The notes beneath the pieces are model-generated. The model did no database searches. It was not told the origin of the DNA and saw only the letters and a list, made by a program, of their open reading frames with translations. Position numbers and translations under genes: made by a program. Shown in pieces: positions 55,586-60,600 of a DNA stretch of 64,000 nt. Source of the DNA: Stylophora pistillata (lineage: Eukaryota); the NCBI RefSeq assembly GCF_002571385.2, contig NW_019217784.1, forward strand, positions 853,218-917,217, given 5' to 3'. Within the stretch, counting starts at the first letter, position 1, and the number at the start of each line of letters is the position of its first letter.

Positions 55586-57068
55586 TTATGCTGGACAGGT
55601 AATGCCACTCAATTTCTCTACAAGAGTTTTCCTTAACATAGTTGTAAGCTGTTCAAGTTCTTGTGCCTGTTTTCGCAGTTCTGCATTACTTTTCTCAAGT
55701 TCTTCCTCTTGTTGGAACAAATCCTGTTCTTTCTGCCTTCTGGCAGCACGAGCATGTTTTGATGCAATGTTATTCTTTAATCGTCTCACTGTTTGTTTGT
55801 CAAGAGTACTTGCAATACCCATGACTTTATTATGTTCAGTCTCTTTGTCTGAATACTGTTTGACTTTCTTAGCAAGTGATTTACAACCATCAGCGGAATG
55901 AACTCGTTTTCTTGTCTGATTATGTTGAACATTCATACCACTTTTGTGACTAACTGTACATACATCTCCTACACTAAGCAAACTAACATTAGGCACCTGT
56001 CCAAGATCATCAGAAAGAGAAAAAAGTTCACCAATGTCAACAGTCACAGTTGAAATATTTTCAGAGCTACTGTCCACATTCTGAACTGACAAAGGCACAG
56101 CCACAGGCTCAGTGCTAACAAAGGACTGTACCAGTTCTTGAGTGAGAAGAGTCAGTGCATCTGATGATTGGATGACTGTGATTTCTTCCACAGCTGTATC
56201 AGCCATTTCTTCTCCGTTGGAATCAGAGGTAAGTTGATGCATACTTGACAGTAGATTGTCGCAGTCCTCTTCCAGAGACACAACATCTACTACACTCTCA
56301 GGGGAGAGTGCTGTGTCAGTAAAGTCTCCAGCAGATGAGAAGACCTCGGATTCACTACCAAGTGAGACAATGTCAATTACATCACTACCAGGAGAAGCCA
56401 CATCTGAGTACTCAGCAGTTCTTGCAGTCTCCATCTTCACAATATCTGACTGGCAGATGTCTGAAGTGGAGACTGGTAAAGTATGCTCCACTTCAAACCC
56501 CAAATCCATTGTGTCAAGATGTGGGAGATCTGGAAACAGCTTGTCGATATCAAGGTATTGCTCGAAGAATGGATCGTCCATACAACCTGGTGACTCACAC
56601 AAGTCCAACAAACTTTCTGTTGGTTTGGTGTTCAACTCATCAAGCAGCCGAAGGTCGAGTATGAACTCCTCATCTTTAGCATCAATCTGGCTTTCAGTGT
56701 CTTGCAATGATTCCAATATATCTAGAAATAAAAATAAAGAGATCATGGAGAGTTGTTTGACAAGAATGAGGCAATACGGAAGGTCAGAAATAAACAACTC
56801 TACCGCTGCGATTTACGTGTTTATTTCACAAGGAGTTACGACTTAACCGGTGGACAGAGGTATACCGGCAACAAGGAAATTTGCTACATTTCATGTACTT
56901 AAACTTAAATACCTTGATCTTTATTCAAGATTTTTCAAAAGAAATCACTGTCTTTTAAATTAAGATTATTCAAACCTTACCATTTGGTACTTCATCAAAC
57001 AGGCGGCATGAATTCAGAGTCCAAGGTTTGGTTCCAGTGTCTTCGTTGGTTTCCATGTGTGTTTCCAT
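55586..57068 (-). CDS. bZIP transcription factor (C/EBP-PAR-like basic region), two coding exons 57068-56981 and 56721-55586, ~407 aa
   Basis: RRLKNNIASKHARAARRQKE followed by Leu heptads; long acidic, Ser-rich N-terminus. Phase-1 donor G|GTAAGG at 56981 joins acceptor TTCTAG|AT at 56721 in frame. Confidence 0.85.
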
Positions 57069-57216
57069 GTTTGTTTCCTTCTTGCCGGTGTAACGATTTT
57101 TTTCCTCTACTTCGATCGAGCCGCTTTTCAAACGGTCGATTTTTTCGAGGCAAGGATTGTTCGGGATAGGCCATGATAACTTCGGATAGTTCTGTGTCAG
57201 CGAACTTACTATGCAT
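56995..57216 (-). promoter_or_regulatory. uORF overlapping the bZIP start out of frame (ATGs at 57216 and 57174)
   Basis: 73/59-codon ORF ending PPV-stop; overlaps the main CDS by 74 nt. Confidence 0.6.
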
Positions 57217-57399
57217 TTCGAATTAAATGAAGAGTAGTTAGCTGTCGAATCTGCCGTTGTGTGGCTTAAGCCTGAACTTTTTGGAGAATATTCCTTCGAG
57301 CGCCGACTTGTCAAAGAGCGGCGCCAACGCTGTCGATCAAACGCAGGTTTACCCAACAAAAGCGGAGAATACCTCGACGAAATTCTTGAGGAAAAGCCA

Positions 57400-57665
57400 G
57401 AAATGAAATAAAATTTGGTATGTTATTGCACTACTTTGTATAAATGGTGGTGCAATAGTTGTGCTAAAATTCTACACTTACGTCAACATGAACCAATCAC
57501 ATACCGCGTAAGTTTAGTTTGTGATGTCATCTGTGACCAATCATTATCGAGTTCAAAGAGTTGTCAATGGAAACCGATTAAATTAACGATTCTGTTTGGC
57601 TCGATACTTCAAGTAGTTTGTACAAGTCCAAACAGAAAGTGAACGGACCAATATTTGCGTCATAG
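57400..57665 (-). promoter_or_regulatory. Putative bZIP promoter with CRE/ATF, C/EBP-type and CCAAT motifs
   Basis: TGGTGCAAT 57448, TTACGTCA 57478, TGATGTCA 57522, TTGCGTCA ~57655; CCAAT at 57493, 57537, 57648; TATA-like and Inr-like motifs near 57440 and 57405. Confidence 0.45.
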
Positions 57666-60600
57666 TTTCTAGAGGAAGGATAATTCAACATCTTCAGTTA
57701 ATGTGGTCACTTGTTATGAAGTCCTCGTAGGTTTCTCCGCCGAGCGAACAATCTGGCCGCTTTGATTAATAGAGGAATTTGTTTGATTGGCTGATTTTAA
57801 TATTTTTTGTTTTGTTTTTTCATTTTATTTGTTATTTTTTCATTTTTTGCATGAGAAAAATAAGATGATGTTGAGAAAACCAGATACTCCTTCGCACAAT
57901 GGTGCAACTTTCTGTACCCCTTATGATTTTTTGTCAAGTTGTGTTTCGCCAAAGGTTTTTGTTACATCAGTCAAAGAATGGTTAAGTTTGAACGAATATC
58001 AAAGTGAGTTAAAAGCTGGGCTGATTGTGTGGAAGTCTGTGGGAAAAAGCTCTACGTCTTAAGTATCAAGGAAGCTTTAAAACAAAGTGGAAAACAAAAG
58101 AAAAAGACTACACATATCCACGCAAGGAATAAGCTTTGATTAATAATCAACGGACGCCCTGCTTTCAGTTCGTCCCAATCCATTCCTGTTCGGACATACA
58201 TATAAGAATACAATAGATGTAAACGGAATCATAAGCCTCTCTAGTTAATCCTTCCAGGCTAGAATTATCCCTTTTATCATTACCAAAAAACCCTTATCTT
58301 ACTCTTATAATTGTGTTAATTTTTTTTTATTATTTCTTTTCTTCTTTTGGGGGCGGCACCGGGGCTCCTAGCTCCCTCCGGTATTTCTCTCTCCATTGCA
58401 TGACTGGGATGGTAACGATTGTCTAAAGGTGTAGTCTGACACCTGGCTTCTGACAGGTACTGTTGTGCTATGTTCCGGATGAACCAGAATCACATACAAC
58501 TTAGTAGCGAACATACATCCCAAAAGGCCATACGAGCTCACAAGCGTAGCCACACAAGTCACGATGGTTACACCTTGGCTCTCTAGGCCCGCAAAGTCCA
58601 CTGGGAAGTAAGCTATGGCGGAGAGAAGGAGTATGTACATTGCAAAACCGATATACCTTGCCTCGTTGAGGTTTTCTGGTAACTTTCTCGCTTTGAAATC
58701 ATGAATGATGCATATTCCAGATATATATCAAAACGAGGTAGCCGTTGATTGCGAGATGCAGGCTGAAACCCAAGGAAAACCTGTGTGGGCAACAGGTCAG
58801 AAAAATGTATTCGCCTCGCTTTATAACTCGTGTCATAAAGGGAGCGTCGATAAAAAACAAAACGTTAACAGAAAAACTACAACCGAGTTCAACAAAAACA
58901 CCAACGTGGCTTGAACTTTTCAGTTTGTCATCAGAATGAAGTGCTTCATTCACTTATCAATGAGATCATCACGGAAAGCGCTTAGAATACGAAGAGATTT
59001 AATCAAGAGTGTAGCAACACATGTAACGAGCGCACAGGAGTTCAAGAAGTAAGCTAAACGGCAGGTTAAGGTTGTAGGTTGCATTACACTCAGGAACGTT
59101 TGAGCGAAGAACACAGTGATGGAAAGCAACAAGATTGCACTTAGTTCACGGCTTGAAGCTTTCACGAGCGGTTTCTCTCGATATCTTAATAGAACAAGGG
59201 ACGAAAATATCGAAAGTAACACACCGAAAATTATAAAACCTGTGACCTGGTAACCCGTGATGTCTGTCGGTTTGATGTTAACTATTGGTAGATCTTCGCG
59301 TTCTGTTCGATTCTCACTTCACCTCTGACCTTCAGGACATTCTTTGCAATTCATGTGCCCAGAGTCTGGATTAACGGAACCTGGAGGACATTCTACGCAT
59401 TCCCAGCAACATGCAGTTGTAACAGACTGCGCCGTGCTTGGAGGACATATCACAGAACAAGCCGATGTGGGTGGAACACTGAAATTTGAAGTTCTCTTAT
59501 TCCATTTGATCTTCCCGACTTCAATCTCAAGCCTTATTCTGGAACTCTTATTCCAAGATCCAACAATTTCCTTGACATTTTGTGTAACCCCTCCTACTTC
59601 CCGTCTATGAAAGTTAATAATTCCATATGATGAAGTCACGGGGTCAGCAGACTTATCAAACTGAAATTTCCCATAATACCATCGAACAAAACGTTCCCTA
59701 GGTTCAGGTCAACATCCAGCGGCCTCACTGATGGATGAATTTGGGGACATCTCCCCCTTTGGAGTGGACCATAACGTTCCTTGCATAAATAAATCATATG
59801 AAGAGCACGCGCAACTGCATAAACTGCCTCGATTACGTAAGGAAGAAAAGTATCATAGAGCTTTTGAATTACATTTTGAGTCAGAGTTGCAATATCTAGG
59901 CACACACAGAGTTCACAAGATTTTTCCAGAGAGCAACTGAATTCTTTCGTCGAAACTTTTTGCCACTATTGAGACATACGTTTCCTGATCATGTCCTTTG
60001 GGGTAATTATTGCCAAATATGATTTGAATTCTTCATTGTGATGATAAATGGCTGTATGCCCAAGGCCCCATCCAAGACACCGAAAAGTGATCGAATGTGG
60101 TTTGGTTGTTCTGATGCGAGGGCATCGCTCCAAATCCTGGTGCGATCTAGCAATTTCTGATTTTCTATTTCCTGAATGAAAGCTCGGCCATAGCCACCAA
60201 ACAGCCAAAGAACAACTACTCTGGCATTTGAACGTCTCTTTAGTTTGGTGACTATAACGTTAACTTTATTCATGTAGTTTGAACGAATGTATTCAGAGCT
60301 ATACAAAATGACTTCCTTGGGAAGGATTCCTTTTCAAGTGCCCACACTCCATATCTGCCATACGAATCATCAACAGCCACTGTTGCAACGTGACTCCAAT
60401 CAAAATGTTCAAATAGATCCGCCATTGCGCTTGCTCGTTGCTTGTCCGATGGCACTGTTATAAAAGAGGTTTTGTAGAACGGCGAGCTTAGCTCTTCACT
60501 CATCGCAGCGTAACTGATAGCAGGTATACCTGCAACTTTAAGCAAGCTTCCACCCAAGACGGAGCTGCCAGAGTCAGCTGGCCGAATTAGAGACACAGCT

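Follow-up and report, generated by a model that had tools for sequence, protein, structure and literature searches.

A bZIP gene of the coral Stylophora pistillata carries within its mRNA a conserved upstream open reading frame (uORF) that overlaps the annotated bZIP start out of frame, and the bZIP frame is itself open well upstream of that start. From comparisons of sequence we somewhat favor a mode of control in which the uORF would act as a brake and the bZIP frame would be entered independently of the annotated AUG. At rest the overlapping uORF would likely capture most scanning ribosomes and keep the bZIP factor off; AUG-independent entry of this kind would likely switch it on. In corals this entry is probably at an ACG that is invariant and lies 41-44 nt ahead of the uORF start; across the family it would presumably be through a +1 slip at the uORF stop itself, of the form NUU-URA-Y. 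We infer the trigger to be translational stress: slowed elongation or termination on the uORF would build a queue, with scanning complexes likely held over the ACG, a start at which would give a protein 63 residues longer, and a ribosome paused at the stop would gain time and may slip +1. Leaky scanning to the ATG at 57068 may add a third route.

More tentatively, and at somewhat less than an even chance, an invertebrate bZIP family (cnidarians, molluscs, nemerteans and possibly nematode ZIP-2) may have kept an antizyme/RF2-like +1 frameshift at the stop of the overlapping uORF since before the cnidarian-bilaterian split. Synthesis of the factor would then report ribosome slowing directly, and corals would have added an ACG one queued ribosome upstream of the uORF. 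Programmed frameshifting is known from few animal nuclear genes.

Gene layout, transcription and splicing

The window, i.e. the whole stretch of 64,000 nucleotides that was analyzed, encodes on its minus strand a bZIP gene with a single intron. We recomputed the coordinates of a preliminary description of this gene and all of them hold. The features considered below are:

55586..56721, minus: exon 2 coding region, comprising an acidic region and a C-terminal bZIP domain (about 55804-55649), from Pfam and reads
56722..56980, minus: intron of 259 nt, GT-AG, phase 1, with 67, 34, 31 and 26 junction reads
56994..57000, minus: uORF end GUU-UGA-U (Phe-Asp in the bZIP frame), conserved; candidate +1 shift or slow-termination site
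56995..57216, minus: overlapping uORF of 73 codons in the -1 frame relative to the bZIP, from reads and conservation
57066..57068, minus: main ATG as annotated, with A at -3 and G at +4, the start of the public protein P0002
57069..57257, minus: 63 further codons of the bZIP frame ahead of the annotated ATG, free of stops, from homologous peptides
57115..57140, minus: predicted hairpin in the middle of the uORF, from z-scores against mononucleotide shuffles
57204..57209, minus: donor-like GTAAGT, proposed in the preliminary description; no use seen in reads
57255..57257, minus: bZIP-frame ACG with A at -3 and G at +4, in a conserved context; candidate non-AUG start
57298..57337, minus: 19-nt invariant block, the longest invariant run in six aligned sequences, with a GC-rich hairpin
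57400..57425, minus: approximate 5' end of the transcript, from the drop in read depth in four runs
57456-57448, minus: C/EBP-ATF-like ATTGCACCA, invariant in the window and 4/4 aligned genomic loci
57448..57529, minus: promoter interval containing CCAAT boxes, invariant in the window and 4/4 genomic loci
57485-57478, minus: CRE-like TGACGTAA, invariant in the window and 4/4 aligned genomic loci
57529-57522, minus: CRE-like TGACATCA, invariant in the window and 4/4 aligned genomic loci

Exon 2 matches the Pfam bZIP_2 model (35.4 bits, E 1.2e-8), and RNA reads cover its coding region completely. The product of the ATG at 57068 is P0002, a public protein of 407 aa annotated from S. pistillata either as uncharacterized or as "cell death specification protein 2". 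A PDB search returned only weak matches to the bZIPs of C/EBP and GCN4 (best E 0.011), and no stray copies turned up in a scan of 78 prokaryote genomes.

Raw reads of two studies, four runs of unstated treatment in all, were mapped to 55300-57800 (1% threshold, 2-6% of each run). Sense depth falls from 1.7-18.9 at 57316-57399 to 0.6-3.2 at 57400-57483 and then to none in the four runs. Since sense coverage extends to about 57400-57420 in all of them, beyond both 57216 and 57174, the two upstream ATGs lie in the mRNA. Among seven alleles of the leader and exon 1 the ACG, the ATGs and the stop are all intact and neither frame gains a stop; a one-base insertion in an A run (12/153 reads) may be slippage. 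Runs X23 and X24 contain a second, divergent allele with clustered changes at 55945-55967 and 57026-57227. Run X23 alone has reads in the antisense direction at 57400-57735, at a low depth of 1-2.5 and upstream of where the transcript starts.

The preliminary description had proposed a dual translational and splicing switch, in which, under stress, the donor at 57209 would join the uORF ATG to exon 2 and thereby make it the bZIP start. The elements it relied upon are present: ATA|GTAAGT occurs at 57209 as a consensus donor in phase 1, like the used donor at 56980, and joining 57210 to 56721 would yield an in-frame bZIP protein of 380 aa. Moreover, the second allele in the reads keeps GTAAGT (its change at 57213 spares the hexamer), the uORF peptides of the nearest relatives start with M-H-S-K or M-L-S-K, which is compatible with the hexamer, and a stress splice form exists for Drosophila Xrp1 (bioRxiv 10.1101/2025.06.15.659587). 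However, among joints with at least three reads per run, and leaving aside three loose ends, the normal junction is the sole one listed (158 reads in all), and the 57210>56721 joint is listed in none of the four runs at a depth of 14-40 at the site. GTRAG is missing at the corresponding position in 7/7 related loci (six coral-like ones and L033), and the GT opens a Val codon, where relatives have Val or Ile. GTAAGT occurs 33 times over both strands of the window, and a leader of 350 nt is expected to contain 0.09 copies; the donor hexamer does not go beyond chance, and the uORF does. Hence the translational half of the proposal survives, with a uORF that is transcribed and conserved, and the splicing half, lacking both the joint and conservation of the donor, is largely refuted. 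Rare or stress-only use of the donor may occur, and we give the splice switch itself hardly any credence.

Upstream of the transcript, the interval 57448-57545 is a dense conserved promoter, whose elements we take, on the basis of their motifs, to be of the CRE-like, CCAAT and C/EBP-ATF-like types; it suggests transcriptional input from other bZIP factors. Within the leader, the 7-bp stem of the GC-rich hairpin is kept in 6/6 sequences with one-sided changes only, and its stability in the window equals that of shuffles (z -0.1). The hairpin in the middle of the uORF has z-scores of -2.6 (window), -5.6 (L023), -2.8 (L025) and 0.0 (L028), and a search for compensatory pairs in it found none. The first bases of the contig bearing L028 (1-130) fail to align with the coral leader and resemble bacterial rRNA, which makes a chimeric 5' end of this contig probable.

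Two other features flank the gene in the window. On the minus strand, 58368-60260 encodes a class C GPCR-like sequence (NCD3G E 5.6e-10, 7tm_3 E 1.3e-18) that is interrupted by in-frame stops and apparent frame changes and is likely a pseudogene just upstream of the promoter. On the plus strand, at about 51000-54500, lie exon-like ORFs with coiled-coil and ABC-ATPase signature-like peptides, resembling a putative SMC5-type gene that would converge on the bZIP gene.

The uORF, the open bZIP frame and the stop site

In the transcribed leader 57216 and 57174 are the sole upstream ATGs, and, just as the preliminary description stated, they share one frame (73 and 59 codons) which overlaps the ATG at 57068 out of frame by 74 nt and terminates in M-P-P-V-TGA, with the stop at 56997-56995. 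A scan of metagenomes recovered 15 related loci, of which five come without upstream DNA and ten are informative. Six of these are coral-like, with 48-54% identity in exon 2, and represent four distinct sequences; L035 and L036 are one sequence. The uORF start, its length (73-77 codons) and its stop are kept in 6/6 coral-like loci with exon 1; the second ATG at 57174 is absent from all six. The uORF is very probably a conserved and repressive element. Its stop precedes the intron donor by 14 nt in the window, by 8 nt in L023, L025 and L027 and by 5 nt in a paralog; junction-based decay follows a 50-nt rule, and a stop 14 nt before the junction would be close enough to escape it.

A profile recovered 13 predicted uORF peptides (at least one of them a query's own), all of which end in V or I, with endings such as M-W-P-V, M-R-P-V, M-W-T-V, M-P-P-V and R-W-P-I. 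The preliminary description had drawn a parallel between the Pro-Pro ending and the uORF of GADD34, which is of the type with a Pro-Pro-Gly motif. This parallel fails because Pro-Pro is unconserved: P-P-V is found only in the window and P0345, and 12 of the 13 peptides end otherwise; relatives have R-P-V, W-P-V, W-I-V, W-T-V or W-P-I in its place. Pro-Pro being specific to this species, we rejected stalling on it. In one distant lineage (L035:112-417 together with P0347 and P0350-P0355) the uORF encodes a conserved acidic peptide of ~100 aa, whose conservation begins at a strong-context GTG ~30 codons before the first AUG. Homology between the bilaterian-like uORF peptide and the coral extension is unsupported (hhalign probability 0.3%), and an atlas search with the uORF of L034 returned nothing at 0.9 or above.

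The preliminary description missed that the bZIP frame is stop-free from 57422 to 57068. The 63-codon extension aligns with the N-terminal extensions of proteins from an Acropora cluster, Porites and Oculina, its H-T-T-A-D peptide being matched in the Acropora-cluster, Porites evermanni and P0085 proteins. In the six coral-like loci and in L033, too, no stop interrupts this frame upstream of the uORF AUG; in L034, L035/36 and the paralog it closes 30-41 codons before the stop site. The in-frame ACG lies within a 16-nt block in which a single base differs across the window and the six coral-like loci, all of which share the context AGCCACAC-R-ACGGCAG, and it precedes the uORF ATG by 41 nt (window) or 44 nt. 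Between the ACG and the uORF stop the bZIP frame contains 0 stops in 6/6 sequences, and the third frame contains 3-6 within the overlap. Under synonymous recoding of the uORF the chance of such an open frame is 0.038 in the window, 0.016 in L028 and 0.009 in L033; it is an unremarkable 0.17-0.38 in L023, L025 and L027, where an early in-frame AUG is present.

In the distant locus L033 an in-frame ACG is followed by the first in-frame AUG only after 198 codons; aligned with P0103 over 177 columns, this AUG-less frame is 49% identical (E 1e-39). The +4 base of that ACG is U, and the codon is at most a putative positional homolog of the coral ACG; coral profiles do not recognize the L033 extension, and they recognize its uORF weakly (E 0.005). 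Codon-position counts after the coral ACG (5/14, 10/14 and 7/13 variable columns) give no main-frame signal, those in the overlap (42/71 at each position) do not separate the two frames, and those upstream of the ACG (8, 4 and 12 of 26) are borderline and unlike what a start at the ACG would give. The bZIP-frame translation of exon 1, used as a query, found no short homologs (0/9 candidates). Weighing these observations, we regard the ACG as probably serving as a start in corals.

The end of the uORF is conserved at the nucleotide level. The window shares GUU-UGA-U with L033 and the six coral-like loci, whereas L034 has AUU-UGA-C and L035/L036 have AUU-UAA-C, such that NUU-URA-Y closes an AUG-started uORF in the window, in 10/10 informative loci and in the paralog. 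The background of this motif is about 2.9-4.6% per stop: as a control, 7 of 242 stops in the -1 frame of six coding regions have it, as do 4.5% of stop triplets in the window. The bZIP frame is in the +1 register relative to the uORF, and there the motif leaves a shadow, G-L-F-[D/N/K], in 27 of 146 distant homologs against 2.3 expected, including proteins of Elysia marginata and Tubulanus polymorphus. In all 27 it follows S/C/G/R, and in 19 of them T/M/I, which are the residues that selection on the -1 frame would favor; many of the 119 that lack it may be exon-2-only predictions. Folds 3' of the stop range from z +2.1 to -2.7 in four loci, with no conserved 3' stimulator evident. A protein constraint on Phe-Asp/Asn combined with the stop may also give the motif in the absence of any shift, and ORF2 lacks its own start codon only in L033 and the paralog. 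That a +1 shift is used somewhere in the family we put at a little under an even chance.

The bZIP family and alternative explanations

The S. pistillata genome has 19 bZIP_2 matches. The nearest paralog of this gene, L037 (G000:C14:973500-978200), is the second hit (E 3.7e-6) and has a predicted intron in the same position. It carries a strong-context uORF of 34 or 59 codons ending in CUU-UGA-C at 2438-2444. An in-frame AUG is missing both from the 41 open codons that lead up to the site and from the 72 codons after it, and the 140 nt before it contain no YAG-type acceptor AG. L037 forms a long branch in the tree, and its match to the family acidic motif before the first Met is weak at 2.0 bits, a value reached by 7 of 1000 shuffles, with two PAR-like controls at 2.4-2.7. 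It is the cleanest candidate for frameshifting. Its promoter region has a TTGCACCA element.

A tree of 60 bZIP domains over 73 columns, with rough supports, includes 16 of the 19 own-genome matches and leaves out L033. It places this gene within a cnidarian-like group (85/95), apart from the ATF4, C/EBP and PAR-like rows, and groups L034 with an Elysia protein (100/82). Another gene of the same genome, L013/L038 (G000:C149:264000-269500, minus), which we take to be ATF4 from its ATF4-type basic region motif, falls outside the group holding this gene, the alignment being short and the supports rough. It is the likely ATF4 ortholog, and ATF4 orthology of the present gene was rejected. L013/L038 has a 3-codon uORF and an ATG closely followed by a GTAAGT donor, which would begin a likely intron-split overlapping uORF ending in UCU-UGA-A; a ATTGCATCA element lies in its promoter. 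The label "ATF4-style" in the preliminary description is loose: it fits the conserved, out-of-frame overlapping uORF, and neither the gene's ancestry nor its leader, which lacks a short AUG uORF1. Together with the tree and the ATF4-type gene, a profile search matching 753 proteins at E 0.001 (150 of them listed) points to a widespread invertebrate bZIP family distinct from ATF4. Atlas neighbors are arthropod and nematode bZIP_2 clusters (0.90-0.94), a lead only, and no nematode ZIP-2 sequence was among the search results.

The main rival to AUG-independent entry, which we judge unlikely, is ordinary control by the integrated stress response, wherein eIF2-alpha phosphorylation would let ribosomes bypass the upstream ATGs and start by leaky scanning at 57068, as in CHOP, ATF5 or Xrp1, the ACG and the stop context being conserved for other causes such as dual coding or RNA structure. 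The main ATG within the overlap is strong, and an in-frame AUG, often in a good context, lies within the overlap in this gene and in all informative loci but L033 (the six coral-like loci, L034 and L035/36), so that recoding is not required in this gene and in 9 of the 10 loci. The conserved C/EBP-ATF-like promoter element is in keeping with such control, as is the repression of the Xrp1 main ORF by its uORF2 (PMC13268129). In an RNAalifold prediction the stop region base-pairs with the flank of the ACG and with the 19-nt block, and this could also account for the conservation of the ACG. However, that long-range pairing has no compensatory support, is broken in the window and L028 (2/6 sequences), and was rejected. 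Leaky scanning is further at odds with the lack of a short AUG uORF1 and with the shifting position of the main AUG, which lies 19-62 codons before the Phe in different corals, and it leaves unexplained the AUG-less frame of L033, the AUG-less paralog and the open frame upstream of the AUG.

Conservation of the uORF end could alternatively reflect its peptide, with a C-terminal S-E-x-x-W-P-[V/I]-stop that would stall the terminating ribosome and block downstream translation until relieved by a metabolite or stress, no frameshift being involved and the ACG being minor. When coral uORF profiles are compared with bilaterian-like ones, the last 13 residues are indeed the sole shared part (hhalign E 0.0035, probability 9%), the bilaterian-like uORF peptides are ~60% identical over 100 aa, and the residues before the G-L-F shadow (S/C/G/R in 27/27, T/M/I in 19/27) show the wobble pattern that selection in the -1 frame predicts. 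Yet the W and P are replaced in this gene (P-P-V), its nearest relatives (R-P-V), L028 (W-I-V), L033 (Y-R-V) and the paralog (P-R-L), and the NUU-URA-Y nucleotides persist where they change. We hold peptide arrest to be distinctly improbable, and continue to favor somewhat the uORF brake with AUG-independent entry into the bZIP frame. Should such entry operate, coral biology would gain a candidate stress regulator to which transcript counts are blind, and current gene models would seem to lack the N-terminus of this bZIP.

Comparison with known systems

Like ATF4, ATF5 and Xrp1, the coral gene has an out-of-frame uORF overlapping the bZIP start; unlike ATF4 and ATF5, it is not of the ATF4 orthologous group and has no short uORF1. 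In the ATF4 overlap a hairpin and a near-cognate codon act through queuing (PMC11058473), and passages of an Xrp1 preprint (bioRxiv 10.64898/2026.10.09.757274) make no mention of frameshifting or non-AUG initiation. Searches of the open-licence literature turned up no account of the present arrangement in cnidarians or other non-nematode invertebrates.

The stop site resembles those of antizyme and RF2. Antizyme genes naturally shift +1 at GUU-, AUU- and UUU-UGA; the RF2 site, CUU-UGA, also supports shifting in mammalian cells when it is placed in an antizyme context (PMC1874602). As in those genes, the ORF1 stop is preceded by GUU, AUU or CUU, ORF2 lies in the +1 frame and a pyrimidine follows the stop (PMC1874602). 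The differences are that the protein is unrelated and that most members of the coral-bZIP family keep an in-frame AUG.

The closest parallel in layout is zip-2 of C. elegans, in which a 146-codon overlapping ORF (oORF) lies in the -1 frame, and activation by elongation inhibitors can dispense with the main AUG and with eIF2-alpha phosphorylation (PMC11831180, Kniazeva and Ruvkun 2025). Both genes have a C-terminal bZIP, an AUG-started oORF in the -1 frame, a main frame open upstream of both AUGs and an unconserved position of the main AUG. The zip-2 oORF ends in CUU-UGA in eight Caenorhabditis species and CUU-UAA in one (PMC11831180), i.e. CUU-URA in 9/9, as in the paralog L037, and the main text of that paper does not name this CUU site. 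A difference is that no in-frame ACG is evident in the 20 codons printed upstream (PMC11831180). This likeness is one of layout, and ZIP-2 is a possible homolog of the coral bZIP. The zip-2 authors proposed a +1 shift anywhere in the overlap, and could neither place the site nor detect the fusion peptide (PMC11831180); the 7-nt site common to corals, mollusc-like and other distant relatives and the AUG-less paralog offers a precise candidate location for such a shift. Low-dose induction of zip-2 drops to 1-4% when main codon 15 is made a stop, and a gene with an early oORF stop still responds (PMC11831180), on account of which entry there appears to lie upstream of the terminal CUU-UGA. The terminal site is then unlikely to be the sole route, and the mutants would also fit non-AUG initiation under queuing, queue-driven non-AUG initiation being an established process (PMC6601509).

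The candidate ACG has its counterpart in cpc-1 of Neurospora: among the near-cognate starts of that gene, the best conserved is an ACG with A-3/G+4 that precedes the inhibitory uORF (PMC5487733, Ivanov 2017). The two share a stress bZIP (cpc-1 being a GCN4 homolog), a main frame that is stop-free upstream and a conserved in-frame ACG. They differ in that cpc-1 has a short reinitiation uORF1 and a uORF2 of 35-70 codons (PMC5487733), belongs to another bZIP family and kingdom, and has had its initiation demonstrated in extracts, the coral ACG being a candidate. If the ACG route were true, the coral gene would be an animal counterpart of this fungal design and would furnish a second possible explanation for the zip-2 mutants, namely a non-AUG start under queuing.
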